This document shows positions 6,003 to 40,555 of a stretch of DNA of 40,555 nt, piece by piece; position 1 is the stretch's first letter; the number at the start of each line of letters is the position of its first letter. The notes under the pieces were generated by a model. The model did not search any database and was not told the origin of the DNA. It was given only the letters and a program-made list of their open reading frames with translations. Source of the stretch: Elusimicrobiota bacterium (GTDB lineage: Bacteria > Elusimicrobiota > Elusimicrobia > UBA1565). The position numbers and the translations under genes are program-made. The stretch is from NCBI GenBank assembly GCA_043827405.1, contig JBDRPD010000094.1, positions 1-40,555 on the forward strand. Direction: 5' to 3'.

Positions 6003-6009
6003 CACTCGG

Positions 6010-21800: not shown

Positions 21801-22390
21801 AGCGCGACATCATATTGGCCGGGGTCGGCGGCCAGGGCATCCTCACCGCCGCCAAGCTCATCTATACCGCGGCCTCCCGCGAGGGCCTCAATATGAAGCA
21901 GACCGAGGTGCACGGGATGAGCCAGCGGGGCGGCTCGGTGGAATCGCATATCCGCATTTCCGACGGGGAGATCCACAGCGCGCTGATCCCCGAGGGCGCC
22001 TGCGACCTCATCATCGCCACCGACCCCCTCGAATCGCTGCGCTATGTCCGCTTTCTCGCCGCCGACGGAGCCATGGTCGTCAACAAGACGCCGTTCAAGA
22101 ATATCGCCGACTACCCCGCCGAGGACTTTATCACCGCCGAGCTCGGCAAGCTTGCCGGGTCGCTGACCGGCCCCGTACACGTAGTGGACCCGGCGGCGAT
22201 GGCGAAGGAGGCCGGCAGCGCCTACGCGCAGAACGCGGCGCTGCTCGGCGCGGCCTGCGGGCTGACCGGGCTCAAGCCCGAAAGCTTCCGGGCGGCCATC
22301 GCCGAAGTCTTCGCCGGTAAGGGAGATAACGTTATCGCAATAAATACCGTCGCCTTTGACCTGGGCCTGCGTTCGCTGCAGCCGGCGTGA
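21797..22390 (+). CDS. iorB: Indolepyruvate:ferredoxin oxidoreductase beta subunit
   Basis: IILAGVGGQG, EVHGMSQRGGSV.SH; GTGA overlap with the iorA stop. Confidence 0.93.
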   Translation: MKRDIILAGVGGQGILTAAKLIYTAASREGLNMKQTEVHGMSQRGGSVESHIRISDGEIHSALIPEGACDLIIATDPLESLRYVRFLAADGAMVVNKTPFKNIADYPAEDFITAELGKLAGSLTGPVHVVDPAAMAKEAGSAYAQNAALLGAACGLTGLKPESFRAAIAEVFAGKGDNVIAINTVAFDLGLRSLQPA

Positions 22391-24642
22391 TAGCTAAGAG
22401 CCGGCTGGACCGCATCGAGACGATCTTCGACGACGCCGCCGCCCGGGGACGCAATGTACTGCTCGAGCCGGAGGCGTACGACGTACTGTCGCTGCTGTCG
22501 CTGTCCGCCCCCCGCCATGTCTATATCCGGTCCGGCGCTCCCCTCACTTTCTCCGCCGCCGGCTCTTTCCACGGGAAGGATGCGGTGGTCAAGGTCGCCT
22601 CCTCCAAGCATCTGCACAAGACCGACTCAGGCGGCGTGGCGATCGTCGGCAAGAACCGCGGCGAAATCACGGCCGCCCTCGACCGCATGTTCAAGAAGTT
22701 CCCTGAAGCCGAAGGCGTGCTGATAGCCGAGTTCGTGGAATACGGCGGCTCCTCGCTGGGCCACGAGCTCATCCTGGGCGCCCGCCACGATGAGGCGTTC
22801 GGCCCGGTGCTGTCCTTCGGTCCCGGCGGCACCGGCGTCGAGGAACTTACCGAAGCGCTCAAGGCCGGGCTGTCGCCCGCCATCGCCGAATGCGGCCGCT
22901 TGGGCAGCCTCGGCGCGCGTGATTTTCTCAGCAATGCCTGGATTTGGCGCTACCTATCGGGCGGCGTGCGCGGCAGCCGGCGGCTGGTAACGGACGAAGA
23001 AATGGAGAAATGGCTGCGGGCTTTCGCCGAAGTAATGCGGGCCTTCTCCGACGGCAATAAACGGAAGTGGACGATCGAAGAGCTCGAGGTCAACCCGCTC
23101 GTGGTATCCGGCGGCCGGCTTTCGGCGCTGGACTGCCTGCTGCGCTTTCGCCCCGCCGCTGACGGCAAGCGCCGCGCCCGGCGGCCGCTCGACAGCATCC
23201 GCCGGCTCATGAACCCGCGGCACGCAGCCTTCGTCGGTGTCGGCGGGCCGGCGCATGTCGGCCGCATCATCCTCAATAATGTGGTAAGCGAAGGCTTCGA
23301 CATAAAGAATCTCCACGTCATCAAAGAGGGCGTGGACGCCGTCGACGGCGTGCCCTGCGTCCCTTCGATCTCCGAGCTTCCGCACAAAGTCGACATGCTG
23401 GTGATGTCCACCTCGTCCGCCGCCGTCCCCCAGCTGCTGCGGGAAGCCGCGCAGAGCGGCAAGGTGGAGGGCGCCGTCATCATCAGCGGCGGCATGGGCG
23501 AGAAAGCCGGCACCGAGTCTTTGCAGGACGCAGCCCGCGAGGTTATCCGCGATGCCCGGGCCAAAGGCAGCGGCTTCGTGGCGGTCGGCGGCAACTCGCT
23601 CGGGATCATCTCGGCCCCGGCCAAGCTCAACACCTTCTTTATCCCGCCGTACAAAATGGAGCCGCGCCGTCCGCCGGCCGGACGAACCGCCGACACGGCC
23701 TTCATCAGCCAGAGCGGCGCCTTTATCATATCGGCGATGAGCCGGCTCGACTGGTTCGCTCCGCTCTACGCCGTCTCGGCCGGCAACCAGCTCGACGCCA
23801 CCATCGCGGACTACACCGAGTGCGTGCTTAACGACCCGAAGGTCAAAGTCATCGTGCTCTACATCGAGGGCTTCATGGAAGGCGACGGCGAGCGGCTGAC
23901 CACGCTCATCCGCCGCGCCCGCCGCTTGGGCAAAACCGTGATCTGCTACAAGGCCGGCCGTACGCCCACCGGCCGCCAGGCCGTCCGCGGCCATACGGCG
24001 TCGATCGCGGGCGAGTATCCGACCGCGCGCGCGGCGCTTTCCACCGCGGGGGCCGTCGTAGTCGAATCCTTCGACGACTTTGACGATGTCCTGAAGCTCG
24101 CCTGCGCGTTCTCGGAGCTGAAGGGCAAGGGACGCCGCACTTACTTCATCACCAACGCGGGCTTCGAATCCGCCGGCATGGCCGACTCGCTGGGCCCCCG
24201 GGGAACGCTGCGGCCGGCGGCCATCGGCAGGGCGCTGCGCACGAAGCTGAAGAAGACGCTGGCGGCGCATAAACTGGACAAGCTGGTGGACCCCCATAAC
24301 CCGCTCGACCTCACCCCGATGGCGGGCGACGACGCCTACTGCGAGCTGTTGGAGCATGTCCTGACCGACAAGGCCGTGGACGCCGTCATCTTGTCCGCGG
24401 TCCCGCTGACTCCGGCGATGCAGACTTTGCCGCCCGGCAAGGAGCATCCCGAGGACCTGGCGGCATCTTTGATCCCGCGGCTGGGAAAAGCCTTCAAGCG
24501 CTGCGGGAAGCCCATCGTCTTCTGCGTCTCATCGGGCGCGCTCTACGACGACTACGTACGGGCGGCAGAGGCGCAGGGCCTGCCGGTCTTGCGCAACGCG
24601 GACCGCGCGGCCCGCGCTTTAGCGAGGTACCTGCAAACATGA
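22387..24642 (+). CDS. ADP-forming acetate/acyl-CoA ligase (ACD), fused, with the ATP-grasp domain N-terminal
   Basis: VVKV.S..LHKTDSGGV, FGPVLSFGPGG, ELEVNPL; then CoA-binding and ligase domains GGNSLG, FISQSGA, phospho-His GHTASIAG, NPLDLT. Confidence 0.9.
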   Translation: MIAKSRLDRIETIFDDAAARGRNVLLEPEAYDVLSLLSLSAPRHVYIRSGAPLTFSAAGSFHGKDAVVKVASSKHLHKTDSGGVAIVGKNRGEITAALDRMFKKFPEAEGVLIAEFVEYGGSSLGHELILGARHDEAFGPVLSFGPGGTGVEELTEALKAGLSPAIAECGRLGSLGARDFLSNAWIWRYLSGGVRGSRRLVTDEEMEKWLRAFAEVMRAFSDGNKRKWTIEELEVNPLVVSGGRLSALDCLLRFRPAADGKRRARRPLDSIRRLMNPRHAAFVGVGGPAHVGRIILNNVVSEGFDIKNLHVIKEGVDAVDGVPCVPSISELPHKVDMLVMSTSSAAVPQLLREAAQSGKVEGAVIISGGMGEKAGTESLQDAAREVIRDARAKGSGFVAVGGNSLGIISAPAKLNTFFIPPYKMEPRRPPAGRTADTAFISQSGAFIISAMSRLDWFAPLYAVSAGNQLDATIADYTECVLNDPKVKVIVLYIEGFMEGDGERLTTLIRRARRLGKTVICYKAGRTPTGRQAVRGHTASIAGEYPTARAALSTAGAVVVESFDDFDDVLKLACAFSELKGKGRRTYFITNAGFESAGMADSLGPRGTLRPAAIGRALRTKLKKTLAAHKLDKLVDPHNPLDLTPMAGDDAYCELLEHVLTDKAVDAVILSAVPLTPAMQTLPPGKEHPEDLAASLIPRLGKAFKRCGKPIVFCVSSGALYDDYVRAAEAQGLPVLRNADRAARALARYLQT

Positions 24643-26528: not shown

Positions 26529-27605
26529 TCAGCGCGGCAGGGGCGCGGCGGGACGCAGCTCGGCGATGTGCCGGATTTCCTCGGCCAGCCGGCGGAAAGC
26601 CCGCGTATCCATGGTCTGCGCGCCGTCCGACCAGGCCCGATCGGGATCGGTATGGACCTCGATGAGCAGCCCGTCCGCTCCCGCCGCCACGGCCGCGCGC
26701 GCCATCGCCGGGACATAGGCGCGGTTGCCCGCGGGGTGGCTCGGATCGGCGATGACGGGGAACGGTGAGCGCTCTTTGAGCACCGGAAACGCCCCGACAT
26801 CCAGCATAAACCGCGTCGCCTGTTCGTAGGTGCGGATCCCTCGCTCGCATAGGATGAGGCCCGTATTCTCCCGCTCGGCGCAGAAGCGGCCGATGAGGAT
26901 ATACTCCGCCGCCTGCAGGAACTCATCGATAGTGGAGCCGAAGCCGCGCTTGAGCAGCACCGGCTTGCCGGAAGGGTGCTGACCCGCCTTGAAGAGCAGC
27001 GGGAAATTCTGCATATTGCGCGCCCCGATCTGGATCGCGTCGGCATAGCGCGCCACGACGTCGAGGTCTTCCGGCTCCAGCGCCTCGGTGACGATCGGCA
27101 GGCCCGTGCGCTCGCGCGCCAGCGCCAGATACTCCAGGCCGCGCTCCCGCAGCCCGGCGAACGAGTAGGGAGATGTCCGCGGCTTGAAGGCGCCGCCGCG
27201 CAGCGCCGAGGCTCCCGCCTCCTTAACCGCCTCGGCGATCTCGCAGATCTGGCTCTCGCTCTCCACGCCGCAGGGACCGGCGATGATTACGGCTTCCGGA
27301 CCGCCGACCCGCACGCTGTCGGACAGCGGCACAACGATGTCCGGCTGGCCGTTGCGCCGCACGACCATGCCGCGGGGATCGATCATCGCCGTCCGGCGCG
27401 CGCCCGGCATGGACCGCACTTCCTCGAGCTGGCTCTTCCGGATCGGGCTCTCGAGACGGAAGGTCAGAAAATTGGGGCCGAAGCACCGGCACCGGTTGTC
27501 TGAATCGCTGATCAGCCCCCATTTCATAAGCGCCGGCCCGATACGCTTATGGAAAGAGTCGCCGTCGAAACAAACCGCCAGTATCCCCGTCTCTTGTCCT
27601 TCCAT
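26529..27605 (-). CDS. aroF: DAHP synthase (type I-beta) with a divergent N-terminal domain
   Basis: IIAGPCGVES, RGGAFKPRTSPYSF, QIGARNMQNF, LLKRG, LCERGIRT, IADPSH, LIEVH, SDGAQ; SD GGGAGG. Confidence 0.92.
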   Translation of the reverse strand: MEGQETGILAVCFDGDSFHKRIGPALMKWGLISDSDNRCRCFGPNFLTFRLESPIRKSQLEEVRSMPGARRTAMIDPRGMVVRRNGQPDIVVPLSDSVRVGGPEAVIIAGPCGVESESQICEIAEAVKEAGASALRGGAFKPRTSPYSFAGLRERGLEYLALARERTGLPIVTEALEPEDLDVVARYADAIQIGARNMQNFPLLFKAGQHPSGKPVLLKRGFGSTIDEFLQAAEYILIGRFCAERENTGLILCERGIRTYEQATRFMLDVGAFPVLKERSPFPVIADPSHPAGNRAYVPAMARAAVAAGADGLLIEVHTDPDRAWSDGAQTMDTRAFRRLAEEIRHIAELRPAAPLPR

Positions 27606-27614
27606 AAGTCCTCC

Positions 27615-28712
27615 CTAAACAGCGGCGACGGCTTCCAGCTCGATGAGCAAATCGTCGCGGCAAACGTCTCCGATGACCGCGACCACCGGCAGTGCGGGCA
27701 GCCGATGCTTGCGGCTGAACCGGCGCCAGGCCGCGTACGCCGCACGGTCCTTGCAGTACAGCGTCGCGCTCAAAATATCCTTCGCCCCCGCGCCCTGCTC
27801 CTTCAGTATCGCCAGCACGCTGGCATACGTTTGGCGGCTCTGCGCCTCCGGGTCATCGAGGAAAACGGTGTCGCCCTTGGCGTTGATGCTCGCGGTGCCC
27901 GAGACGTGGATGGTCTTGCGTCCGTTATGGCGCAGCACCATGGCGCGGGAAAAGGCCGACCGGTAGGCGAAGGCCTGTCCCTGCCGCGCGGTCTTGAGCA
28001 CCGGCTGGAAGCTGACGCCGCTCCCCTTTTGGGCGTCGACGGCCAGAACGTCCATCGCGCATTCCGCCCGGCGAACGCTTCCCTGAATGCCGGTACTGGC
28101 GGGCAGCACGGATGCGTGCCTCCGGCCGAGGTAGTCGCGGCGCCGGTAGAGCGCATTCCGTACCCGGTTGAAATCGTCGTACCAGTCCAGCAGGCGGCGG
28201 AGGTAAATCCAGGTTCGCACGACTTGGTCATAGGCAAAGCCGTGCGCCCGCAGGGCCGCGTGCGCGCGCCGGAACATCCGCTCCGCCTGGCGCGGCGCGC
28301 CTCCGCTCCCGGTCCCAAGAACTTCGGGCAGATAAAGCAGGCGAAAACCGGCGCCTTCCCACAACCGCCCGCGCAGCCCTCCCGGACAGCGGACCGTCCG
28401 CACGGAACCCGAACGGGTTCCCCAGACCCTGACGCCGGCGGTCTCATCCGCCCCGAACGGCTCGCCCTGCACATAGGTCGCGGGAGCGGCATGCTCGAGG
28501 CCGCGCCGCCGGTAGGCCGCCTTACGGGCGGCCAAGACCTTGGCCCGGTCGCGGTCGCGGCCGTAGATGATCTCCTGGATGGGCGCGATGCGCTTATTGC
28601 GCATGACGTCGCCGAGCTCGGCGAAAAGCTTCTTGGCGCTCCCGCCGCGAACCTCAGCCGTCATGAAATACTCCTGATGCGTGCCGTAATCGACGGCTTT
28701 TAGGCGTATCAT
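27615..28712 (-). CDS. Multi-domain Rid-fold protein, FkbO/Hyg5/XanB2 chorismatase-like
   Basis: VVRTWIYL...YDDFNRVR, LPASTGI, AFSRA, VSGTASI, DVCRDDLLIELE; directly upstream of the DAHP synthase. Confidence 0.72.
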   Translation of the reverse strand: MIRLKAVDYGTHQEYFMTAEVRGGSAKKLFAELGDVMRNKRIAPIQEIIYGRDRDRAKVLAARKAAYRRRGLEHAAPATYVQGEPFGADETAGVRVWGTRSGSVRTVRCPGGLRGRLWEGAGFRLLYLPEVLGTGSGGAPRQAERMFRRAHAALRAHGFAYDQVVRTWIYLRRLLDWYDDFNRVRNALYRRRDYLGRRHASVLPASTGIQGSVRRAECAMDVLAVDAQKGSGVSFQPVLKTARQGQAFAYRSAFSRAMVLRHNGRKTIHVSGTASINAKGDTVFLDDPEAQSRQTYASVLAILKEQGAGAKDILSATLYCKDRAAYAAWRRFSRKHRLPALPVVAVIGDVCRDDLLIELEAVAAV

Positions 28713-29692
28713 TTTCCATCCTTCCCTTCGCCCGCGCCGCGCGCGCAGCGAAATCCCACATCAAGATGCGCATAGTCCGGATTGCTCCACAGACGGCGCG
28801 AGGTCCGCGCATTATACTGCGCGACGTACGGGATCACCCCCGACCAGGCCCCGCCGCGAATAACCTTTCTCGTGTCGGGCTCGCGGCCCTGCAGCGGGCT
28901 GCGCAGGCGATCGGCGCGCTCCCAGCCCGGCATGCTGTACCAGTCGGCGACCCATTCCCAGACATTGCCCGCCATATCCAGACAGCCGTAGGGACTCGCG
29001 CCGCCGGGTAGGCTTCCCACCGGCACGGGACCGGCCTCTCTCTTCAGCCCGCTGCGGCTCAGCCCCGGCCGCCAATCCTCTCCCCAGGGGAACGTCCGTC
29101 CGTCGGCGCCGCGCGCCGCCTTTTCCCATTCCGCCTCGGTCGGCAGGCGCTTGCCGGCGCGGCGGCAGAATGCCTCGGCGTCGGCCCAGGTGACATTGCG
29201 CACCGGCAGCCGGGACTGCTGCGCGGCCAGTTCCTTGAACTCCGCGCGCGCTCTGAGCTGGTCTATCGGCTCAAGCCCGTCGTAGTTGAGCATGTCGAAC
29301 AGCGCGAAAGAAGCCGCGCGCCAGCGCGCGATCACCTCCTCACGGGCATAGACGTCGTCTTCCTGAAAGGCCTTCAGCGTCACCCCGTAGCGCTTCTCAT
29401 AGTGGGCGATCAGGTCGGCGCTGCCTTGCGCCGAATGGCGGAACCACGGCCCGCCGAGAGTCTCATAGCCGGCGCTGTCACGGACAAACTCGGCATAGGC
29501 GGCGTTGGTCACCTCGATCTTGTCGATATAAAACTCAGGCAGCGACGCCGTACGCCGCGGGCGTTCATCCTCATTGCGGTGGTCCGCGCCCATGATGAAC
29601 TCGCCCGCCGGCACGCGCGCCATATCCGGCGCGCCGGCGGCGGAAAGCCCGGCCGGCAGCAGCGCGACAAGCAGCAGAAGTCTTAGGGTCAT
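28709..29692 (-). CDS. Exported FGE-sulfatase (SUMF1/EgtB/PvdO) fold protein
   Basis: Signal peptide; VPAGEFIMG, EVTNAAY, RLPTEAEWEKAARG, DMAGNVWEW, RGGAW, GFRCA; no catalytic Cys cluster. Confidence 0.9.
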   Translation of the reverse strand: MTLRLLLLVALLPAGLSAAGAPDMARVPAGEFIMGADHRNEDERPRRTASLPEFYIDKIEVTNAAYAEFVRDSAGYETLGGPWFRHSAQGSADLIAHYEKRYGVTLKAFQEDDVYAREEVIARWRAASFALFDMLNYDGLEPIDQLRARAEFKELAAQQSRLPVRNVTWADAEAFCRRAGKRLPTEAEWEKAARGADGRTFPWGEDWRPGLSRSGLKREAGPVPVGSLPGGASPYGCLDMAGNVWEWVADWYSMPGWERADRLRSPLQGREPDTRKVIRGGAWSGVIPYVAQYNARTSRRLWSNPDYAHLDVGFRCARGAGEGKDGK

Positions 29693-30732
29693 AAATCCTT
29701 CGCGCAGCGAAAGCCCAGCGTATAGCCCCGGTATTCGGGCTCGCGATAAGCGCGTTTGGCGCAGCGTACCGAACTCGGCGCGCTGCGTGAACTGCCGCCC
29801 CGTACGCCGCGGAAGCTTCCGCGCTGGGGACCGCCCGGATTGCGGCTCGGGGCCCCGGAATAGTAGCCCGCGTCATACCAGTCCGCGACCCACTCGGCGG
29901 CGTTGCCCGCCATATCGGAACAGCCGTAGGGGCTGCGGCCGTCCATAAACTGTCCCACCGCGGTCCACTGTCCTTCATAGCTTCCCACCGGAGCGGGATA
30001 GATATAGCCGTCCTTCTCAAAGCCCTTGAACTCCAGATAGCCGTCAAACGACTCGACGCCGCGCGCGGCGATGTCGAGCCCCTTCTTCTCCCAGCCCGTG
30101 TTCGCGCGCCCCCAATCCCAGAAGCTGCCCCAGGGCCAGCGCCGGCCGTCGTGCCCGCGGCAGGCTTTTTCCCACTCTGCCTCCGTCGGCAGCCGCTTTC
30201 CCGCCCAGGCGGCATAGGCATAGGCGTCGAACCAGTCGACGCCGACGACCGGATTTTCATCTTTGCGGAAAGTGTCTCGTCCGAACGGCGCGGCAGCCGC
30301 ATAGGCGCGATCTTTGAGCAGCGGGTTGTATTCTCCCCAGTAGCGCGGCGTATGATCCTTGCCTTTGGGCTCGTCCGCATGGCACTTTCCGTGATCACGC
30401 GTCTTCTCGATCCAGTCGAGGAACTTCCGGTATTGGGCGTTGCTTACTTCATAGCGGTCGATGGCATAGCCGCGCAGCGTCACCCTGCGCTGCGGCCGCT
30501 CTTCCGCATGCTCCCAGCCGTCGTGCGCCCTATGGATCAGCGCGTCATGAGCGCTCAGCGGCTTGCTCCCGTCCGGCCAATCCTTGGGCGCATCGGGATG
30601 CTTTTCCGCCGTCCCCATGAGAAACTCTCCGGCCGGGATCACGATCATATCGGCGCCGACCGCGTTTTTGGAGACGGCAGACGGCGCCAGGACCATGCAC
30701 AGCACGAAACCAAGCGGCAGCGCTCTCCTCAT
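29689..30732 (-). CDS. Exported FGE-sulfatase (SUMF1/EgtB/PvdO) fold protein
   Basis: Signal peptide; IPAGEFLMG, EVSNAQY, RLPTEAEWEKACRG, DMAGNAAEW, RGGS, GFRCA. Confidence 0.9.
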   Translation of the reverse strand: MRRALPLGFVLCMVLAPSAVSKNAVGADMIVIPAGEFLMGTAEKHPDAPKDWPDGSKPLSAHDALIHRAHDGWEHAEERPQRRVTLRGYAIDRYEVSNAQYRKFLDWIEKTRDHGKCHADEPKGKDHTPRYWGEYNPLLKDRAYAAAAPFGRDTFRKDENPVVGVDWFDAYAYAAWAGKRLPTEAEWEKACRGHDGRRWPWGSFWDWGRANTGWEKKGLDIAARGVESFDGYLEFKGFEKDGYIYPAPVGSYEGQWTAVGQFMDGRSPYGCSDMAGNAAEWVADWYDAGYYSGAPSRNPGGPQRGSFRGVRGGSSRSAPSSVRCAKRAYREPEYRGYTLGFRCAKDL

Positions 30733-33700
30733 TCGATCGTCCGCAGGAAATTAACCAAGTCGTCGAGCTCACGCGCGCTGAGCTGCGATGTCCCGCCATG
30801 GGTGTCGAAGCCGATGCGCGAACCCCCCTCGATGCTGGCGCGCATCTGCGGCGATGCGCAGCAGACGGCGAACGTCTCATTGAAGCCGACCTCGCGCCGG
30901 CCCGGACGCTCGGCTTCGCCGCCCAGCAGGGGTTCGTACTTAAACTTCCGCAGGCCCATATGGCCGCGCGCAGACACGGATTCCCGCAGCGTCCGCGCCA
31001 GCCCGTTATGCAGAAAAACCGGCGGCCGGTCCCACAAGCCGCGCAAGCCGAGAATAGTTATATGTCCCTGCGTCTCCTCGACGCGGCCCTTATCCCAGGG
31101 TTCGAGGTCGCGCTTATAATCGTTGAGTGTGTCGAGATAGTTCATGCCGATCAGGGTAAATGCCGCGTCGCGCTCGGTAAACAGCACCTGCGGAGTGATC
31201 GCCTGCTGACGGTTGCCGTCCAGGTCCTTTTTCGCGAAATGCGGCGGCGGATGGCAGGAGTTGCAGCCGAGCTGCGCTTCCTGGTAGAGCTTCAGCCCCC
31301 GGCGCACCGACTCGCTGCGCGGATCAAACGGATTCGGCATCAGCCGCGGCTCATGCATTTGCCATTCCCCGACGAAGCGCTGAAAGTCGCGCAGCGTGAA
31401 GCCCTTGCCGAAATGACGCATGCCGACATTGCGAAACATTTCGTCGCGCCGCTCCTCCAGGGTGGTCCGGAAATCGGTGGACGCGCTCATGCTCGACTGC
31501 ACATCGTCGACGCCGAACATCACGAAGTCGGCCTCGATGCCGGTATAGTCGCCGTCGGGGACCGGACGGCGGAAGTCATCGGCGGGATTATGCTCCATGA
31601 TCATCGAGCGCGGCTCGTAGCCGGAAATGACGCCCTCGAAAAAGAACGGCTGCAGCCCGAACAGGCCGCGCATCTGCGGAACGTTCATCGTGCCGCCGAT
31701 AATAAACTGCCCCTCCTCCTGGTAGCGCTGTACGTACTCCTGGCCCAGCACCTGGCTGACGCCCCAGGGCCTGCCGTCGCCGGTATCCGCATTGTGGCAA
31801 TGGGCGCAGGAGGTGTCGCCGTCGGAGGAGTAGAAAGACGTATGGGCGAAGAGCTCGCCGCGTTCGGCGCTGGTGTCCGGGAACGGCCGCACCGGGATGC
31901 CGGGGTCGATCACCACCTCGCGCGACTCCCCGCTTTCGCGGTCGATGACGCTGAGCGTGCCGCCGAGGAAGTTGGCGGTGAAGGCCTTGCCCGCCGAAGG
32001 CGTTCCCGGCCGGCCCAGCACGAGGCCGATGGGCAGCAGGCCGGTCTCATAGACCCGCTCGGGTATGAGGTAATTGCTCGGATCGGCCGCCGTCGGATTG
32101 ATCCGCCACTCCTGGACCTGCGAGGTCGACTGCATATTAACCAGCAGCCGGTCGCCGTCGAGCGCCATCATGGCGGGCGTCGCCCCGATCACGCGCATAA
32201 GATCGGGCGGGATGTCGCCCTTGATGTCGCCGTGGGTCGACTCGGCGGTATCCGAGGTGTAGCGCGTCCAGCCGCGATGCGCCTCGTAGCGGTTGGCCCG
32301 CAGCAGATACGGCAGGCCGTCCGGCGCGGCCGGCGGCCGCTGCGGCAGCTCAAGAGCGCCGACGTCGATGAAGACGACGTCGTTCTGGATATCGCGGAAC
32401 TTGATCCCCGCGGTCCCGTCTACGGCATCGAACGGGCCGAGGATATTCTGCTCATCTTTTGGCAGCACGCGGCCCGTTGCCGAATCACGCAGAACGGTGT
32501 ACTGCGCCGCGGGATTTTCCGGGTCGCGGCTCTCGCCGCCGTACGGGTCGCGTTCATTGGTGGTGCCGAAGCCGACGCCCTGGGTGCCGACCATGAGATA
32601 GTCCCGCCCGGTCGCCGTCGAATGATAGACCTGCAGGTCGCTGATCCCGTTCTGGATGTAAATCCCGCCGACCTCGCGCAGGTGCTCGGTGCTGACGATC
32701 GATATGTCCTGGGTCCCGGCATTGCCCACGAACAGCAGCTTGCCGTCGGTGCTCAGCGCCAGCTCCTTGGGCTTGCTGTGGGGATTGCCCACGGGGATAC
32801 CCGGTCCATCCCCCGCCGCCGCGATCCAGTCCCGAATCTGCCGGTAGTCCGGGTCCTCGTCCGGCTCGGCGAATACCACGGTCCGCATGGTCAAAGTGGA
32901 GGTAAAAACGTTGCGATCGGCATAACCGCCGTGTTTGACCGGCAGCGCCGCCCGCAGCAGGATGCTCTCTTCCGGTTCGCCCGGACGGACATGCGGCACG
33001 GCCGACAGCAGGCTCTTGACGGCATCCTCACCCGCGTAAAACTCGCCCTTTTGCGGATCCGCATGGCAGGAACCGCAGCGTTTCACGAGGACCGGATGGA
33101 CGCGGGCGAAAAATGTCTTATCGTCGAGGCCGCCGAGAACCCGCATGTCGGCGGTGAAGGTCTTCTTGTCCGCCTGGATATCGACCACGAAGACCTGGTC
33201 GAGATAGCGGTTGGCGACGAATGCCCGCCGCCCGTCCTGGGCGAAAACGATATCCTGGGCGTAGAAGTCGAGCGGGATTTCCGCGACGACTTTATCGGTT
33301 TTGGTGTCGATCACGCTGGCGAAGTTGGAAAAACGACTGGTCACGATCAGGAACCGCCCGTCCGGATGCAGCCGCAGATGGAAGGGGGCGGAGGCGGGCG
33401 GCCCTTTCTCGCCCTTTATTTTCAGCGCGATGCGGCGGATGATTTCGTCCTTGGCCACGTCGTAAACCGCCACCTCCGAACCCGGTCGAAGTTCCGACCC
33501 CAGAAGGGCGATATAAACTTTATTCCCATCCTGCGAAACGGCGAGGTCGAAGGGATGGTCCCGGCGCGGCTTTGGCTCGGGACCGGGGTTGGGATTGGGA
33601 ACCGGCCGCAGGTTCTCCCGGACATAATGCTCGCCGTAAGCCCAGCGGCGGCTGGTCAGCCGGCCGAAGAGCGAGGGCGGGGTCGCTCCGCTTTGGGCAT

Positions 33701-33800
33701 AGCGGGCGAACGGAACAGTCTCATCGGCCGCGAACGCGGCCAATGCCAGCACCGGCACGGCCGCCAGCAAGACCAGGAGGTTAATCTTTTTCCCGTTCAT
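30729..33800 (-). CDS. Exported YVTN-type beta-propeller / tri-heme c-type cytochrome (inserted mono-heme domain plus C-terminal peroxidase-like diheme)
   Basis: Start placed at MNGKKINLLVLL (signal peptide); repeated xDGxx(V/L)(Y/F)VxN blades; CxxCH motifs CGSCH, CAHCH, CNSCH; PPVFLHNG. Confidence 0.85.
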   Translation of the reverse strand: MNGKKINLLVLLAAVPVLALAAFAADETVPFARYAQSGATPPSLFGRLTSRRWAYGEHYVRENLRPVPNPNPGPEPKPRRDHPFDLAVSQDGNKVYIALLGSELRPGSEVAVYDVAKDEIIRRIALKIKGEKGPPASAPFHLRLHPDGRFLIVTSRFSNFASVIDTKTDKVVAEIPLDFYAQDIVFAQDGRRAFVANRYLDQVFVVDIQADKKTFTADMRVLGGLDDKTFFARVHPVLVKRCGSCHADPQKGEFYAGEDAVKSLLSAVPHVRPGEPEESILLRAALPVKHGGYADRNVFTSTLTMRTVVFAEPDEDPDYRQIRDWIAAAGDGPGIPVGNPHSKPKELALSTDGKLLFVGNAGTQDISIVSTEHLREVGGIYIQNGISDLQVYHSTATGRDYLMVGTQGVGFGTTNERDPYGGESRDPENPAAQYTVLRDSATGRVLPKDEQNILGPFDAVDGTAGIKFRDIQNDVVFIDVGALELPQRPPAAPDGLPYLLRANRYEAHRGWTRYTSDTAESTHGDIKGDIPPDLMRVIGATPAMMALDGDRLLVNMQSTSQVQEWRINPTAADPSNYLIPERVYETGLLPIGLVLGRPGTPSAGKAFTANFLGGTLSVIDRESGESREVVIDPGIPVRPFPDTSAERGELFAHTSFYSSDGDTSCAHCHNADTGDGRPWGVSQVLGQEYVQRYQEEGQFIIGGTMNVPQMRGLFGLQPFFFEGVISGYEPRSMIMEHNPADDFRRPVPDGDYTGIEADFVMFGVDDVQSSMSASTDFRTTLEERRDEMFRNVGMRHFGKGFTLRDFQRFVGEWQMHEPRLMPNPFDPRSESVRRGLKLYQEAQLGCNSCHPPPHFAKKDLDGNRQQAITPQVLFTERDAAFTLIGMNYLDTLNDYKRDLEPWDKGRVEETQGHITILGLRGLWDRPPVFLHNGLARTLRESVSARGHMGLRKFKYEPLLGGEAERPGRREVGFNETFAVCCASPQMRASIEGGSRIGFDTHGGTSQLSARELDDLVNFLRTIE

Positions 33801-34074
33801 TCCTGAGCAGAATCGCCATTCCCTTGGACATAGCCGTCGCGACCTTCTTGCGTGCCGAACCCAGCAGCCGCTGCACGGTACCGCGGGACACACCCATGCT
33901 CACACCCGCTTCCGACTGCATGAAGCCCTCCGCATCGCACAGCCTAAATGCCTCCAACTCGTCGCGGTACAGCGTGATCTTCTTCAGCTCGGGCATAGGG
34001 GTACCGGTGGGCTTGAAGGCGCTGCCCTTGAAGGTACAGCCGCATTTTCTAGGCTTCGGGAGTCTAGGCGCCAT
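33781..34074 (-). CDS. DUF134 (UPF0251) HTH protein, putative transcriptional regulator
   Basis: PRLPKPRKC, FKPTG.P, DELEAFRLCD.EG..Q.EAG.SMGVSRGTVQRLL.SARKKVA; SD AGAGGAAG. Confidence 0.92.
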   Translation of the reverse strand: MAPRLPKPRKCGCTFKGSAFKPTGTPMPELKKITLYRDELEAFRLCDAEGFMQSEAGVSMGVSRGTVQRLLGSARKKVATAMSKGMAILLRNEREKD

Positions 34075-34089
34075 ACTTCCTCTTTAATT

Positions 34090-34111
34090 TGTGCATATGC
34101 ACATTATAGCA
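34090..34111 (-). promoter_or_regulatory. Extended -10 (TGcTATAAT) overlapped by the palindromic operator TGTGCATATGCACA
   Basis: Minus strand TGCTATAATGTGCATATGCACA, 15 nt before the DUF134 ATG; identical 19-mer at 36004-36022. Confidence 0.85.
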
Positions 34112-34115
34112 GGCC

Positions 34116-35903
34116 TCATAGCGTCTTAACGAACGCTATCAGGTCGTCGAGCTCCTGCGGCGTCATATCCGAGGTTATGCCGTGGAGATCCTTCGGGTTA
34201 TGGTCGGTGAAAATCGCGCGCAGCGTCTCCGCCCGCCCGTCGTGCAGGTAGGGCGCGGTCCGGTAGGTCTCGCGCAGAGACGGCGTATCGAAATCGTCGC
34301 GCTGGTCCAGGACGCCCCGCAGTCCCAACTTGTACATCTTCATATCGGTATAGGTCGGCGGCGGATGGCAGGTCACGCAGAGCGCCCGGGAGAATAACTC
34401 GCGGCCGCGTTCAATCACCTCCGGCTCGGTATGCCGGAGCCAAGGATTGGGAGCCCGCGGAGGATTACCCAAGAACTCCACCAAAGCATCATGCCGGTCC
34501 TGACGCGGCAGAAAGCCCAGGAAGCGCTGGCCGCCCTTAATGCCTTCCACCATGGAATCGCGCACCGTGGTCCACATGGCCGGCGGCGTGTCCACAGCGT
34601 CGTGCAGGGACTTCGCGTTCTTGGGATTCTGCAGGCCGTCGTTGTGCAGGTCCCAGTTCAAGCCATCCATCGTCGCGTCTTCCTGATGGCAGCTGGCGCA
34701 GCTGTACCACCGTTGGAAGCAGTAGCCGGCATCGTTTATAAGGAGAGAGCCCTTGCGGTAAAGCGTCATGTCCTGCGCCGGGCCAAGCGGAATCCGGGCT
34801 CTGACCGCGCCGGTCTCCGCATCAAGTACGGAGATATCGTCGCTGTAGTAGTTGGCGGCATAAAATTCACCGGCCTTTTCGTTGAGCGCAACCCCTCGCG
34901 GTACCAGGCCCTCGACCTTCACGCGCCGGGCGATCCCGAGCTGACGTACGATTTCCACATTCTCTTCGAGGTGCCGGACGGCGTCCCCCGCGGTCTTCTC
35001 GACCAGCGCCAGCGCCTTCGCGGTATCGACGATGGCGATCTCATGCGCGCCGGAAAGCGAGATATAGAGCCGCTTGCCGTCGGCCGACAGCGCCATGCCC
35101 CAGGGATTGGCGGCGCCGTCGAGCAGATGGTCCAGCAGCAAAGTCACCCGGTGCCCGGGCTTGCTGAGGTCCAGCACCGAGAAGCCGTTGGAGTTGATCC
35201 AGCCGCGCTCGAGCTGCAGCGTCGGCACCTCGTCATGCCCGACGACATGGTTGACGTACGCCCAGCGCCCGTCGGGAGATACCGCGAGCTGCCGCAAATT
35301 GGAGGCACGGCTCAGGCTCCGGTGCTCGAGCACGCGGCCGTCGGCCGCGTCCAGAATGGACACCCCGCGCCCCAGGCCGTTGGCGACTATCAGCTTTTTG
35401 CCGTCGGGCGTCGCCGCGATGAACCGGGGCTCGCGCTTGACCGGCGCCTCGACGACGGTCTCGCCGCTCTCGACATCGATAATCGAGACGCTGTCGGACT
35501 GCGAGTTGGCGACATAAAGCCTTTTCCCGTCGGCCGAGAGCAGCAGACCATAGGGTTCCAGACCCGTCCGCAGCGAACGCATGACGCGGCGCTTCTTTAG
35601 GTCGACTACGGCGACGTCATCGGCATAGCGCCGGGTCACATACAAGACGCGACCGTCGGGCGCCAGCGCCGCCTGCGCGGGGGCGGAGCCGACATAAATC
35701 TCATACAGCGCTTCACGCCCGGCCACATCCAGAACCGATACGGTCCCCGAGGTATGGTTGACCGCATAGGCCCGCTTGCCGTCCGGCGCCAAAAGGATGT
35801 CCAGCGGCGAGTGATACTGCGACTCATCTCCCCATGCGCCAAGGCAGGGAGCTGCGCCGAGCAGCAGCAGAGCGACGATATGCGGAAAATATCGCACGCT
35901 CAA
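34116..35903 (-). CDS. Exported YncE/YVTN beta-propeller fused to a peroxidase-like diheme cytochrome c domain (HzsB/C-like architecture)
   Basis: TTG start after GAAGGAAGG; signal peptide; many PDG/ADG..YV.N blades; YCFQRWYSCASCH, CVTCH, FDTPSLRE..TAPYLHDG. Confidence 0.88.
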   Translation of the reverse strand: MSVRYFPHIVALLLLGAAPCLGAWGDESQYHSPLDILLAPDGKRAYAVNHTSGTVSVLDVAGREALYEIYVGSAPAQAALAPDGRVLYVTRRYADDVAVVDLKKRRVMRSLRTGLEPYGLLLSADGKRLYVANSQSDSVSIIDVESGETVVEAPVKREPRFIAATPDGKKLIVANGLGRGVSILDAADGRVLEHRSLSRASNLRQLAVSPDGRWAYVNHVVGHDEVPTLQLERGWINSNGFSVLDLSKPGHRVTLLLDHLLDGAANPWGMALSADGKRLYISLSGAHEIAIVDTAKALALVEKTAGDAVRHLEENVEIVRQLGIARRVKVEGLVPRGVALNEKAGEFYAANYYSDDISVLDAETGAVRARIPLGPAQDMTLYRKGSLLINDAGYCFQRWYSCASCHQEDATMDGLNWDLHNDGLQNPKNAKSLHDAVDTPPAMWTTVRDSMVEGIKGGQRFLGFLPRQDRHDALVEFLGNPPRAPNPWLRHTEPEVIERGRELFSRALCVTCHPPPTYTDMKMYKLGLRGVLDQRDDFDTPSLRETYRTAPYLHDGRAETLRAIFTDHNPKDLHGITSDMTPQELDDLIAFVKTL

Positions 35904-35980: not shown

Positions 35981-36022
35981 TTGCATTCTCTCCCCGTGAG
36001 AGGTATAATGTGCATATGCACA
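35981..36022 (+). promoter_or_regulatory. sigma70 promoter TTGCAT-17-TATAAT with overlapping operator TGTGCATATGCACA
   Basis: TTGCAT 35981-35986, TATAAT 36004-36009, palindrome 36009-36022, SD GGAGGAG, ATG 36036. Confidence 0.88.
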
Positions 36023-36035
36023 CTACGGAGGAGCC

Positions 36036-36389
36036 ATGCCGAAAATCGCCATCCTGCACTGCAAGAAGATCAAGGACCATTCATGCATCGCCTGCGCCAA
36101 GTGCCATAAAGGTATCAAGGAAAAAAACGGGGAGTTCGCGCGTCATGAAGAGATCGATCTAGCCGCCATGACCGACTGCGGCGACTGTCCGGGACTGACC
36201 GTTCCCCGGGTCAAGATGCTGACCGAGCTCACCAAGGGGCTGGGCCGGGATATCGAGGTCCTGCACCTGGGGACCTGCATGAAACTGGCCATGGAAACGG
36301 CGCAGTGCCCGATCGAATACGAAGACCTGAAGACGACGCTGGAAAATAAATTCGGCATTAAGGTCATCCTGGGCACGCACAGCTACTAA
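36036..36389 (+). CDS. CGGC domain putative metal-binding protein
   Basis: KIAILHC, CIACAKC, TDCGDCPG, LHLGTC, CP, VILGTH. Confidence 0.88.
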   Translation: MPKIAILHCKKIKDHSCIACAKCHKGIKEKNGEFARHEEIDLAAMTDCGDCPGLTVPRVKMLTELTKGLGRDIEVLHLGTCMKLAMETAQCPIEYEDLKTTLENKFGIKVILGTHSY

Positions 36390-36403
36390 ACGAGGAGAGA
36401 GTT

Positions 36404-36796
36404 ATGAAAATAGTTTTTCCAGTTAAGACGTACGCGGGATTGGACAGCAAGGTTTATGCGCATTTCGGCACCGCGCCGATGTTCGTCACCGCCGATTCGG
36501 ACAACAACGAGATCGCTCCCCTGGGCGGCGACGACTGCAAGCATAACGGCGGACAGTGCGGCCCGGTGCGGGAGCTGGCGAACAAGGGAGTAGATTGCGT
36601 AGTCGTCGGCGGTATCGGCGGCGGCGCGCTCAACGGACTGCGCGCGGCCGGGATCGAAGTGTATCTGGCGGCCGCCGCGACCATACGCGAGAACCTGGAA
36701 CTGTTGAAAGCGGGAGGACTGCAGAAGGTCGGAGCCAATGCCGCCTGCCCGGGCGGGGGCCACGAGCACGGCGGCGGCTGCGCCCACCACGCATAG
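36404..36796 (+). CDS. NifB/NifX family (Nitro_FeMo-Co) metallocluster-binding protein
   Basis: MKIVFPV, HFGTAPMF, VVGGIGGGA..LRAAGIEVY; Cys/His tail CPGGGHEHGGGCAHH; SD AGGAG. Confidence 0.9.
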   Translation: MKIVFPVKTYAGLDSKVYAHFGTAPMFVTADSDNNEIAPLGGDDCKHNGGQCGPVRELANKGVDCVVVGGIGGGALNGLRAAGIEVYLAAAATIRENLELLKAGGLQKVGANAACPGGGHEHGGGCAHHA

Positions 36797-36801
36797 GCTC
36801 G

Positions 36802-36847
36802 CGACCGTCCCTACACGACCGCCCCCCCTACACGACCGTCCCCCCTA
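36802..36847 (+). repeat. Three direct repeats CGACCG(t/c)C(n)TA(CA) abutting a -35 box
   Basis: Units start at 36802, 36816 and 36833 (periods 14 and 17). Confidence 0.85.
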
Positions 36848-36876
36848 TTGACTCGCTTTGTCGCGGTAGATATACT
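36848..36876 (+). promoter_or_regulatory. sigma70 promoter TTGACT-17-TATACT
   Basis: TTGACT 36848-36853, TATACT 36871-36876; ATG at 36886 without SD. Confidence 0.8.
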
Positions 36877-36885
36877 GCAACCGAA

Positions 36886-37647
36886 ATGCAAATAACACGA
36901 TATTTCGGTTGGCTCTTGATCCCGGCGCTGGCGGTTTCCAGCCTCGCCGCGCAGACGGATGAGGAGGCGCTGCTCCATACGGGGCAGATACCTCCGCTCG
37001 ACATGGTGCACAGTCTCGACCAAGCGAAGACTTTGAGCTCGTATCTCCCCCGCTGCAAAGGCTCCGCGATGCGCCCGCCGTACGTCTACACGACGGAATA
37101 CCAGCTGTCGAAAAAGGACAACAAGGAAATCGGCCGGATCCTGGCTGCGCTCAATAAATTCGCGGACGTGAGCAAAGCGCGGGCGGCGGGCTACCTTCTC
37201 GGAACGGACTTCGAAAACGGAATGGGCATCCCCTTCCTGAACCAGGAACGCATCATCCGGGGCGAAGTGGACTGGACCCGGCCGACCATCCTGTACTACA
37301 TAAAATCGCGCAAGGAGCCGAAGTACAGCTTAATCAGCGCCGGCTACTACGCCGCCGGCGAGAAACCCGCCGCCGGCTTCGACGCCTACCGCAAGAAGAA
37401 GACCAAGACGCCCGAGCTCCAGTGGCGGCCGTTCAACGGCGCATGCCTGCATGTCGAGGGCGGCCAAGCCGGCTACACCCTGCCGAAAGACGGCGCCGCG
37501 GGCTGCAAAGGCACCTTCCTGGAGAAGGGCTGGCTGCTGCAGTTGGGACTGCCCTTTTACAACCCCTCGGGTTTGTTCGCGCAGCAAAACCCGATCGCCG
37601 ACTACCTGGACCTGAGAGAGAGGGAATTCCGCTTCTGCTATGAGTAA
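36886..37647 (+). CDS. Hypothetical exported protein
   Basis: Start placed at MQITRYFGWLLIPALAVSSLAA (signal peptide); the upstream part of the 36556 ORF overlaps another gene, the repeats and the promoter. Confidence 0.8.
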   Translation: MQITRYFGWLLIPALAVSSLAAQTDEEALLHTGQIPPLDMVHSLDQAKTLSSYLPRCKGSAMRPPYVYTTEYQLSKKDNKEIGRILAALNKFADVSKARAAGYLLGTDFENGMGIPFLNQERIIRGEVDWTRPTILYYIKSRKEPKYSLISAGYYAAGEKPAAGFDAYRKKKTKTPELQWRPFNGACLHVEGGQAGYTLPKDGAAGCKGTFLEKGWLLQLGLPFYNPSGLFAQQNPIADYLDLREREFRFCYE

Positions 37648-39275: not shown

Positions 39276-39644
39276 ATGCCCAAACTTGCCCGCCACTATT
39301 TGCTTGAGTTTGATTCCTGCGACCGCGCCGCTATCGATTCCCCGCGCGCGGCGATGCGGGCGCTGCGCGAACTGTGCCGCGAAGCCCCGCTGCACCCTTT
39401 GCGCCGGGCCTCGCATCGCTTCAAGCCGCAGGGGCTGACCGTGATCATGATACTCAGCGAGAGCCATTTGGCGTTCAGCACCTGGCCGGAGTACGGCTAC
39501 GCCACTTTGCACCTGTTTCTCTGCGGCCGCACCCCGAAGCTGAAGCAGGCGATCGCCGCCTTCGCGCGCCGCATCGGAGCGCGCAAGCGGCGGCAGCGCA
39601 ACTGGAGCTGCGCGACGGCGGCGCGCCGTCCTAAGGGGTCATAG
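39276..39644 (+). CDS. SpeD-like pyruvoyl-dependent decarboxylase proenzyme (divergent)
   Basis: HRFKPQGLT, ILSESHL cleavage motif, TWPE.GYA, FLCG; the usual HTWPE His and DxFTCG Asp are substituted. Confidence 0.8.
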   Translation: MPKLARHYLLEFDSCDRAAIDSPRAAMRALRELCREAPLHPLRRASHRFKPQGLTVIMILSESHLAFSTWPEYGYATLHLFLCGRTPKLKQAIAAFARRIGARKRRQRNWSCATAARRPKGS

Positions 39645-40555
39645 GGCAGGCGGAATGCACCCCGCGCATTAAGGGGCAGGCGGCGGACTTCTCCTGCAGT
39701 ATCGGGGTGAGCTCTTCCCGGCACAGACGTTTGACCTCGTCCCGGGTTTCAATGCACCACTCGTACTTCCCGCGGTACCTCACGCCTTCTTCGCACCAGA
39801 AAGTCTGCAGCTGCCCTTCGCACTGCACGTCGGGGTCATTGCGGCAGTCTTCGCACTTCTGCTCGTACTCGATCATCTTCTGCCGGTAAATCTCGACGTT
39901 CTCCTCGCTGACGCATTGGATCATCAGCTCCCGCGACAGCTCGTCGAGCTGCTCGATGGCGGCGAACTTGCGCGCATTGAAGCGCTCCTCCGCCTCCTCG
40001 CAGGCGACCATATCGGTTTCCAAGCGGCCCACCTCTTCCATCAGCTGCGCGTACTGGTCTCCGGTCCCGATGCTCGGCGGTCCGGCGCCGCCGCCTTCCA
40101 TCCCCAAACCGGCGACGCTGATCGGCTGGCCCCGCAAGGCTGAAGAGCCGGTACTGCGCGAATCCTCCGGCGAGCAGCCGGAACATTTGCCGGTAGGGAT
40201 CGGCGCCCCGGCCTTGCTGTAGCCCCAGCTGACGAAAAGCTGCGACAGCACGCTCGACAAGGTATGCGGCGCGGCGCCGCCGCCCGCCCCCGCGGCCCCT
40301 CGCACCTGGCCCCGCCAAGAGCGCAGATTGAGATTGACGAGCGCCCCGCTGCCGCCCGCGACTCCCCCGCCGCCGTAATTCCCCGCGGGCGCGGGGTTGT
40401 TCGTCCCGCCCGCCACCGGCGTGCCGCCGCCCACTTGGACGCCGCCGTCGGTCAACCCTCCCCCGTCGGCGTTGGCGGCGGCGGCCGCCGCGCCGGTGCC
40501 GTTGGCCGCGCCGGTACCTTTGGCCGCGCCGGTGCCGCTGGCCGCGCCGGTGCCG
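39631..40555 (-). CDS. Hypothetical Gly-rich/Cys-rich protein, 5'-truncated by the window edge
   Basis: The frame stays open to the window end; GTGAAx repeats, Gly-rich linker, 12 Cys in the C-terminal region. Confidence 0.8.
   Translation of the reverse strand, partial: GTGAASGTGAAKGTGAANGTGAAAAAANADGGGLTDGGVQVGGGTPVAGGTNNPAPAGNYGGGGVAGGSGALVNLNLRSWRGQVRGAAGAGGGAAPHTLSSVLSQLFVSWGYSKAGAPIPTGKCSGCSPEDSRSTGSSALRGQPISVAGLGMEGGGAGPPSIGTGDQYAQLMEEVGRLETDMVACEEAEERFNARKFAAIEQLDELSRELMIQCVSEENVEIYRQKMIEYEQKCEDCRNDPDVQCEGQLQTFWCEEGVRYRGKYEWCIETRDEVKRLCREELTPILQEKSAACPLMRGVHSACPMTP
40487..40555. repeat. In-frame 18-bp tandem repeat (at least 3.8 copies) encoding GTGAA(S/K/N)
   Basis: gccgcgccggtgccgttg / gccgcgccggtacctttg / gccgcgccggtgccgctg / gccgcgccggtgccg (cut by the edge). 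Confidence 0.9.

Follow-up and report, generated by a model that had tools for sequence, protein, structure and literature searches.

Hydrazine synthase (HZS) of anammox bacteria is represented by the α–β–γ assembly of Kuenenia (PDB entries 5C2V and 5C2W). HZS-like clades I–IV (Hagglund et al., 2025; PMC12758564) and hzs-like genes (Suarez et al., 2023; PMC10732223) have been described as well, and the function of the non-anammox HZS-like genes has been published as unexplained (PMC12758564; PMC10732223). Chorismatases are treated in known contexts only in the available text of two further sources (PMC12235509; PMC4433059), and PvdO, a protein with the formylglycine-generating enzyme (FGE) fold, is required when an aromatic chromophore is oxidized in the periplasm (PMC6206403). 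Here we describe a gene cluster in which such proteins are encoded side by side. It lies at positions 26529–35903 of contig JBDRPD010000094.1 from an Elusimicrobiota bacterium (assembly GCA_043827405.1). The whole contig (C94; 40,555 nucleotides) is referred to as the window and the source genome (4.33 Mb, 98% complete) as G000. The seven genes encode an HZS-like haem protein (prop1), a DUF134 protein, a second haem protein (prop2), two FGE-fold proteins (FGE1 and FGE2), a chorismatase-like protein and a DAHP synthase. The system is real, conserved and apparently undescribed; its folds are known, and the novelty lies in the system. A preliminary description of this DNA knew of no characterized pathway with this combination. 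In line with that statement, the literature covered, which is partial, yielded no paper linking chorismatases to HZS-like proteins and no characterized pathway in which a chorismatase product reaches exported c-type haem enzymes with neither ligase nor prenyltransferase involved. Neither 'chorismat' nor 'formylglycine' occurs in the main text of PMC12758564.

Related clusters were located with prop2, for which scoring of 8000 candidates gave 205 homologues at E ≤ 1e-20; the query itself aside, the best 120 share 52–64% identity with it. One genome per species was scanned. The 35 loci obtained come from records labelled Verrucomicrobiota, Planctomycetota, Myxococcales, Hydrogenedentota, Nitrospirota and a delta proteobacterium; three relatives of G000 contributed four more loci, for a total of 39. 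The order prop1 > prop2 > FGE1 > FGE2 > chorismatase, with 36–63% protein identity, recurs in the Verrucomicrobiota, Planctomycetota, Hydrogenedentota and delta proteobacterium records, and the Myxococcales share it minus the chorismatase. Genes downstream were counted in the 25 loci with at least 5 kb of DNA past prop2 and genes upstream in the 27 loci with at least 3.5 kb, loci at contig ends being left out. Both FGE genes are present downstream in all 25; 19 have a chorismatase-like gene and eight a DAHP synthase (six of type I-beta and two of type I-alpha). Upstream, prop1 is found in 25 of 27 loci and a membrane-anchored dihaem cytochrome c, with two CxxCH motifs and sometimes fused to prop1, in 24. 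Five of the six loci that lack the chorismatase have a copy elsewhere in the genome, one of them distant. The gene cluster is therefore conserved, more than chance would allow. The preliminary description had treated the seven genes as one system; the DAHP synthase is an optional accessory and DUF134 is not part of the core. DUF134 is absent from all 39 other loci, and only one other genome (G025) has it at the cluster, where it precedes an HZS-α-like gene and where a divergent chorismatase–DAHP synthase pair is also present. The genes listed earlier are all present, but the list did not mention that the usual membrane-anchored dihaem cytochrome c is missing here: the best match in G000, on contig C53 (E 6e-12), is not an orthologue.

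The chorismatase-fed clusters of the rapamycin, FK506 and xanthomonadin type differ from this one, as no CoA ligase, polyketide synthase (PKS), nonribosomal peptide synthetase (NRPS) or prenyltransferase recurs in the 39 loci. More generally, no ligase, prenyltransferase, exporter, transporter or other enzyme recurs across them, as judged by Pfam on 55 chosen neighbours; that the cluster lacks PKS, NRPS and CoA ligase genes had been stated earlier. No nitrogen-oxide gene recurs beside the cluster. Two neighbourhoods hold further genes: in genome G003 a Crp/Fnr-family regulator (L017:4358-5116) lies between the chorismatase–DAHP synthase pair and an HZS-α-like gene, and in L188 ResB/CcsB cytochrome c maturation genes directly follow the chorismatase.

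The haem proteins resemble the β and γ subunits of HZS. With phmmer, prop1 matches 5c2v_B (E 1.6e-52) and 5c2v_C (E 1.8e-20), and it is colinear with HZS β plus γ, combining a seven-bladed propeller with a dihaem domain of the cytochrome c peroxidase (CCP)/MauG fold. The predicted propeller aligns well with HzsB (TM 0.90, r.m.s.d. of 1.7), and the haem domain of the model is of low confidence. The NCBIfam scores are all below cut-off: 240 bits (cut-off 1250) for prop1 with the β–γ fusion model NF052342, 189/560 and 89/625 with the β and γ models, and 53/1250 as the best score for prop2. In prop1, neither CxxCH motif has been lost, and the second haem keeps its distal His. Throughout its family (35 of 35 members), γ-Arg143 is replaced by Met, His144 by Trp and Asp168 by Phe, and Cys165 is absent. 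In HZS, Asp168 is suggested to act as proton donor (PMC12607021), and a Trp at the position of γ-His144 is a CCP/MauG-type residue that is seen in other homologues too (PMC12758564). The second haem protein, prop2, is a paralogue of prop1 (hhalign against the prop1 family, 99.96%, E 9.1e-39) that has an inserted monohaem domain and, at the C-terminus, a dihaem domain, giving three haem motifs. Its top Foldseek match is HzsB, and its haem Cys and His residues and the distal His1001 are invariant in 47 of 47 members. Both proteins fit an HZS β–γ-like fold family, in which a propeller of HzsB geometry is fused to a γ-type domain with two CxxCH motifs and a distal His.

Although the colinearity of prop1, its propeller geometry and the haem motifs and second-haem distal His kept in both proteins are shared with anammox HZS, there are several differences. 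The HZS_alpha domain (PF18582) has no match in G000, two β–γ paralogues are present, the γ-I residues are replaced in prop1, and FGE-fold and chorismatase partners are found, the latter missing from 22 anammox-like genomes. The haem proteins are fused HZS β–γ relatives and not hydrazine synthase, and on the reading favoured below they would make no hydrazine. MauG and the bacterial dihaem cytochrome c peroxidases share the dihaem fold and the inter-haem Trp with prop1; in contrast to them, prop1 scores weakly as a family member, carries a fused HzsB-type propeller and has an HZS-type distal His at the second haem, and no methylamine dehydrogenase (MADH) or other protein-substrate gene lies near the cluster in the window. 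The described HZS-like clades and hzs-like genes have the same fused β–γ arrangement and the Trp at γ-His144 (PMC12758564; PMC10732223), but clades I–IV are defined by an α gene adjoining β–γ (PMC12758564), and neither the window nor G000 contains one. In the variants found in G003 and G025, an HZS-α-like gene occupies the place of prop1. G000 carries two cytochrome c assembly genes.

Kinship with HZS raises the question of nitrogen chemistry. Nitric oxide (NO), the reduction of which has been proposed for the γ-I haem of HZS (PMC12607021), could be converted to a hydroxylamine-level species at a γ-I-like haem and placed on hydroxybenzoate, as an amination or nitrosation, instead of on ammonia. 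The score of prop1 on the HZS β–γ model is higher than those of two other chorismatase-linked relatives (240 bits versus 154 and 156), and G003 and G025 combine prop2 with an HZS-α-like gene. A loop of prop2 that resembles the γ-I distal loop, placed by motif likeness and in a register that differs from that of hhalign, carries Cys in 26 of the 47 members and, in 45 of them, an acidic residue three positions after the Cys site. However, prop2 of the window has Asn at this Cys site and the loop register is ambiguous, prop1 lacks the four γ residues named above, G000 has no HZS_alpha domain, and the cluster has no recurrent nitrogen-oxide neighbour. We therefore regard nitrogen transfer as very unlikely.

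The catalytic cysteine pair of formylglycine-generating enzyme is missing from both FGE-fold proteins, whose matching loop contains no cysteine; for FGE2 this was seen in comparison with PDB structures. The sole cysteine conserved in at least 95% of the FGE1 family (39 members) is the C-terminal structural one, and a 36-member alignment of FGE2 shows conserved Arg/Trp-rich inserts (QGR..TRK and R..RR.W.NP). PvdO and the other FGE-fold proteins (FGE/SUMF1, pFGE and the C-terminal domain of EgtB) are similar in that they have the same fold and are exported, and PvdO and pFGE likewise lack the catalytic cysteine pair. The match to PvdO is nevertheless weak (34–43 bits, cut-off 500), there is no pyoverdine or sulfatase context, and two paralogues with conserved inserts of their own are present. 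By analogy, PvdO is a precedent for an FGE-fold oxidation helper.

The chorismatase-like protein is cytoplasmic and its family profile finds Hyg5 (5AG3; E 2e-13) as the best PDB match. The Hyg5 residues Tyr147, Arg154, Gly173, Arg220, Gly240, Cys327 and Glu334 correspond to Tyr178, Arg185, Gly208, Arg256, Gly272, Cys351 and Glu358, and these seven are present in 134–138 of 138 sequences, the misses being two substitutions and truncated ends; Glu358, Gly208, Gly272 and Cys351 are invariant in 21 of 21 sequences of another alignment. Glu334 is given as catalytic, and Gly173, Gly240 and Cys327 as the CH-II signature, for Nat-hyg5 (PMC7170507). The protein thus shares the two-domain Rid fold and the invariant residues with the CH-II chorismatases Hyg5 and Nat-hyg5 (EC 4.1.3.45; PDB entries 5AG3 and 5A3K), with FkbO (4BPS) and with XanB2. 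It differs in being distant from them (51 bits with TIGR04444, cut-off 325), in having no PKS, NRPS, CoA ligase or prenyltransferase partner, and in its coupling to exported haem proteins. On the evidence of these residues, it probably makes 3-hydroxybenzoate. In a tree of 138 rows, built in quick mode and with long branches, the haem-linked copies are spread throughout. Apparent chorismatase fusions in L167, L184, L205 and L179 were rejected, as their long frames are merely open frame upstream.

The same protein might instead be a Rid enzyme that hydrolyses another enol ether, imine or enamine arising from the substrate or product of the haem enzyme, with the DAHP synthase link being secondary. 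The score far under the TIGR04444 cut-off, the database label RidA-like, the short one-domain versions beside some β–γ genes and the placing of some loci amid sugar-catabolic genes would all fit this explanation. We consider it distinctly unlikely, as all of the substrate-binding, catalytic and CH-II signature positions of Hyg5 are kept and the genomic partners are DAHP synthases of two classes and an aro operon.

The cluster DAHP synthase exceeds the cut-offs of both NF006421 and TIGR01361 (343/268 for the latter) and keeps the catalytic motifs GPC, KPRT, GARN, CERG, DPSH and EVH. A second, housekeeping aroF, which the preliminary description had suggested looking for, was found in a trp/aro operon on contig C38 of G000; it is 50% identical to the cluster copy in one comparison and 45% in another. 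Further DAHP synthase copies exist in all five other cluster genomes checked. The cluster enzyme is 52–58% identical to six cluster-linked copies, and the cluster-linked I-beta enzymes form a subfamily of their own, with an N-terminal domain remodelled relative to the housekeeping copy. The proposed coupling of aromatic synthesis to haem proteins stands because homologous clusters include the chorismatase/DAHP synthase pair and because aroF here is a second copy; the co-occurrence of these genes with haem-propeller and FGE homologues, raised at the outset, is reflected in the downstream counts given above.

The association extends beyond the cluster itself. A chorismatase match (E ≤ 1e-12) is present in 35 of the 39 prop2-bearing genomes. 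Within the class of G000 (151 genomes), the orthologue occurs in four of four genomes with prop2 and in one of 147 without; in this exception (G013) it lies behind aroF-aroC-aroB-aroA. The family of G065, with 151 genomes that include records named Opitutaceae, was examined at an orthologue threshold of E ≤ 1e-160. In all 16 genomes with an orthologue an HZS-β–γ-like or HZS_alpha gene is also present, in many cases without linkage (at a distance of about 0.9 Mb or on a different contig). Conversely, 16 of the 17 genomes with HZS-like genes have the orthologue and one has a distant paralogue, whereas the orthologue is found in none of the 134 without HZS-like genes, a group that counts in three weak HZS_alpha matches and one partial β–γ match and in which a distant paralogue occurs in 26 genomes. 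In the phylum of G047 (331 genomes; fused β–γ-like genes at E ≤ 1e-70), a chorismatase match accompanies 22 of 43 genomes with a fused β–γ-like gene versus seven of 288 without, and in nine genomes it lies within about 1.5 kb of the β–γ-like gene. The other 21 of the 43 comprise six with a short chorismatase-like gene near β–γ, one with an unlinked copy and 14 with none. Such short, one-domain chorismatase-like open reading frames (ORFs) lie 1.3–2.4 kb from fused β–γ-like genes in G350, G502, G532, G336, G289 and G306. In the 22 anammox-like genomes, recognized not by name but by the propeller-only pattern of true HzsB, no chorismatase was found, nine having been rechecked with TIGR04444.

Several gene arrangements are involved. 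Planctomycete operons include HZS_alpha::FGE > β–γ > chorismatase, and HZS_alpha::FGE fusions adjoin β–γ and/or chorismatase genes in L189, L192 and L204. In a reciprocal scan of the best 80 of 543 metagenome chorismatase matches, some loci belong to the present cluster, others adjoin a type I-alpha DAHP synthase, and others again lie next to a second HZS-like cluster with FG-GAP, HZS_alpha, β–γ and two binding-protein genes; L057, L059, L065, L108 and L178 match the description of clade III (PMC12758564) and carry the same chorismatase. A single chorismatase can have several haem partners, as in G003 (two prop2), G296 (three β–γ matches) and G329 (four). The pairing is not special to the two-propeller architecture; the chorismatase accompanies several kinds of HZS-like cluster, often in trans. 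That two independent modules travel together by chance is barely credible: chorismatase–DAHP synthase pairs do stand away from haem genes in many loci, but adjacency is repeated in at least four cluster architectures and across the chorismatase tree, and the genes also co-occur in trans.

Some neighbouring observations bear on these genes without forming part of the counts. Planctomycete HZS-like/chorismatase operons (L189, L204, L193, L194 and L187) lie amid DhaK/DhaL, LsrF-like, sugar-binding, GH123 and sulfatase genes, and these neighbours hint at sugar-related substrates. Exported PD40 propellers of another family, several with one CxxCH, stand beside chorismatase-like genes of other clades (L131:2586-4259, L197, L198, L107, L133 and L167); a PDB search with such a one-CxxCH propeller gave no match, and its likeness to HZS α could not be shown. 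Bacteroides thetaiotaomicron is the only one of 14 control genomes that matches both HZS_alpha (PF18582) and TIGR04444.

The reading that we favour, tentatively and with slightly less than even confidence, is that 3-hydroxybenzoate made in the cytoplasm acts as a cofactor or recycled co-substrate of a periplasmic multihaem oxidoreductase. This enzyme would consist of the two HZS-β–γ-like proteins and two FGE-fold helper proteins and would have its own aromatic-acid supply. In the cytoplasm, the Hyg5-type enzyme, with the residues noted above, would cleave chorismate to 3-hydroxybenzoate and pyruvate, and the extra DAHP synthase, if resistant to feedback, could sustain the shikimate flux when aromatic amino acids shut the housekeeping enzyme. 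The aromatic acid would cross the inner membrane without a dedicated carrier, as no carrier is conserved, and, perhaps once oxidized to a quinone-type form, might serve at open haem sites as a ligand, a small cofactor or a co-substrate that is recycled. Electrons would exit via the second haems, which have His ligands, and through the membrane-anchored dihaem cytochrome c present in most hosts, both of which are conserved. A single chorismatase gene could supply several haem enzymes of the same genome, in the way that one cofactor pathway supplies a number of apoenzymes.

In one alternative, close to the main idea of the preliminary description, the haem and FGE-fold proteins turn 3-hydroxybenzoate stoichiometrically into a released metabolite, such as a catechol or quinone that acts as a chelator, redox shuttle or signal, in the way that PvdP and PvdO complete pyoverdine in the periplasm. 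The extra DAHP synthase suggests a real flux, the prop1 family has the CCP/MauG-type Trp at γ-His144 in 35 of 35 members, and PvdO is needed in a periplasmic oxidation of this kind (PMC6206403). However, recurrent genes for an exporter, receptor, ligase or tailoring enzyme are absent, Phe replaces the HZS proton donor Asp168 in prop1, and the chorismatase family is shared by very different haem architectures, often in trans. A released product is thus unlikely. Cofactor supply fits better than a one-product pathway because the same chorismatase family serves several cluster kinds, often in trans, and the role of cofactor or co-substrate is preferred because one chorismatase stands with several haem enzymes of unlike architecture per genome and because no ligase or exporter follows it.

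Supply of a membrane quinone is a further alternative, in which the chorismatase makes the quinone head group, as XanB2 does for ubiquinone, and the quinone feeds electrons to the haem complex. G000 has cytochrome bd, yet no match to MqnA/D, UbiC or MenD. MqnA/D are, however, missing in all 41 relatives searched, with or without chorismatase; of the three UbiA-family genes of G000, one scores best as haem o synthase, one as MenA-like and one as the NF006088/DPPR-synthase type; UbiX and UbiD are encoded in a mevalonate operon; and no prenyltransferase recurs in the loci. This explanation is highly improbable.

A number of observations weigh against the cofactor or co-substrate reading. The chorismatase call rests on residues: a single-sequence PDB search returned one-domain Rid proteins only, and the score with TIGR04444 is far under its cut-off. 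Four of the 39 prop2 genomes have no chorismatase match (the completeness of these four is not given), and neither model finds one in 14 of the 43 planctomycete β–γ genomes. The distant paralogue occurs in 27 of the 151 genomes of the G065 family, 26 of them without a full-length β–γ-like gene, and many of the 80 metagenome chorismatase loci have no haem gene in the DNA at hand. The large genome searches scored 4–13 candidates per genome, and the sampled genomes are kin, so that co-occurrence overstates independence; Fisher tests on the locus counts are inflated by this kinship and carry no weight here.

The association nevertheless suggests that haem enzymes hitherto unexplained depend on a home-made aromatic acid. 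A wider and somewhat unlikely proposal is that the non-anammox HZS relatives are widespread periplasmic haem enzymes running on a chorismate-derived aromatic, with hydroxybenzoate as a new cofactor or as the acceptor of a nitrogen species bound to the haem, and that anammox HZS descends from such an enzyme with loss of the aromatic partner; the absence of chorismatase from the anammox-like genomes fits this descent. All published α homologues lack the haem ligand Tyr591 (PMC12758564), and an external hydroxybenzoate could supply the missing phenolate. The role of the non-anammox HZS relatives and the origin of HZS are open questions (PMC12758564; PMC10732223), for which the recurrent chorismatase partner provides a concrete handle: one soluble enzyme, one traceable molecule and cultured hosts. 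Cultured hosts with prop2 are Lacunisphaera limnophila, Actomonas aquatica and Pelagicoccus spp., and Opitutus terrae has the chorismatase orthologue. If the dependence is real, a new cofactor or a new aromatic haem chemistry would be at hand, and such hzs-like genes would be false markers of anammox.

The features of the locus are collected in Table 1. The seven ORFs all lie on the minus strand, and their positions agree with the gene order reported earlier. The junctions, comprising a 20-bp overlap, three ATGA overlaps and a 9-nt gap, were found again at the same sites. The hydrophobic signal-like N-terminal stretches of the four proteins described as exported were recognized by eye, with no predictor used, and the earlier family assignments also hold (PF03781 for both FGE-fold proteins, PF02001, PF01042 with weak PF21168 and TIGR04444 matches, and PF00793 with NF006421 over its cut-off).

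Table 1. Features of the cluster and its surroundings in the window
Feature	Positions	Strand	Description
DAHP synthase	26529..27605	-	Extra type I-beta copy; NF006421 384 bits, cut-off 335
Chorismatase-like	27615..28712	-	Cytoplasmic two-domain Rid fold, Hyg5-type residues
FGE2	28709..29692	-	PF03781 E 7e-56; second exported FGE-fold protein
FGE1	29689..30732	-	PF03781 E 1.6e-51; exported FGE-fold protein (C-type-lectin-like)
prop2	30729..33800	-	ATG at 33800, 1023 aa, three CxxCH; exported propeller
DUF134 (UPF0251) helix-turn-helix	33781..34074	-	PF02001 E 6.8e-16; candidate autoregulator, lineage-specific
Candidate DUF134 operator	34090..34103	.	14-bp palindrome directly after TATAAT, before DUF134; putative function
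prop1	34116..35903	-	595 aa, CxxCH at 402 and 509; exported, fused HZS-beta-gamma-like
Second palindrome copy	36009..36022	.	After TATAAT, before divergent CGGC and NifX-like genes (36036-36796)

Within the 41 nt that separate prop1 from DUF134, a TATAAT sequence is followed by the 14-bp palindrome, and because of these elements the stretch from DUF134 to the DAHP synthase probably has its own promoter. A promoter scan returned two sites against 2.3 expected by chance, and the two TATAAT–palindrome sites are not among them. The full palindrome has two copies in the whole of G000, and its relaxed 10-bp core occurs 16 times; in G025 a palindrome sharing the same 8-bp core sits before DUF134. Judged from these motifs, the CGGC and NifX-like genes behind the other TATAAT–palindrome (36009–36796) form a small candidate DUF134 regulon, probably under the same regulator. 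Together, the contigs of run X1, possibly the source sample, cover the entire stretch as two pieces, and in run X2, from another study, one related-strain contig spans prop2–DUF134–prop1 (33542–34718). Among RNA data, two runs of the same study gave short conserved-motif matches only.

Indolepyruvate:ferredoxin oxidoreductase α/β genes and an ADP-forming acyl-CoA ligase gene (20112–24642, plus strand) were rejected as part of the cluster: they lie on the opposite strand, and this aromatic 2-oxo-acid module recurs in none of the neighbour groups listed for at least three loci. Elsewhere in the window, long ORFs at 530–2350, 6025–9588, 9608–10492, 36556–37647 and 39631–40555 have no or weak family matches in the library scanned for each; that at 6025–9588 has a weak M16C-associated domain, and that at 39631–40555 is rich in Gly at its start and in Cys in its tail. 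Cytochrome bd is encoded at 3631–6005.

The source genome also encodes other haem proteins and has quinone- or isoprenoid-related genes. Ten tandem ORFs of about 1020–1160 aa lie at about 31.9–63.2 kb of C53, with two more copies at C53:89158-91332 and C108:46811-49870; these proteins have a WD40-like propeller and four CxxCH motifs in two CCP-type domains, and are 53–63% identical to the first copy. Contigs C12, C105, C68 and C87 carry open frames with 8 to 19 CxxCH motifs, and an ACIII/oxidase-like cluster lies at about 39–52 kb of C25. A MenA-like gene adjoins a polyprenyl synthase gene on C3. An operon at C54:96661-104315 (L214) encodes a type 2 isopentenyl diphosphate isomerase (IDI), HMG-CoA reductase, mevalonate kinase, UbiX, UbiD, an AcnX-like pair and isopentenyl phosphate kinase, and resembles the archaeal-type modified mevalonate pathway, here in a bacterium.

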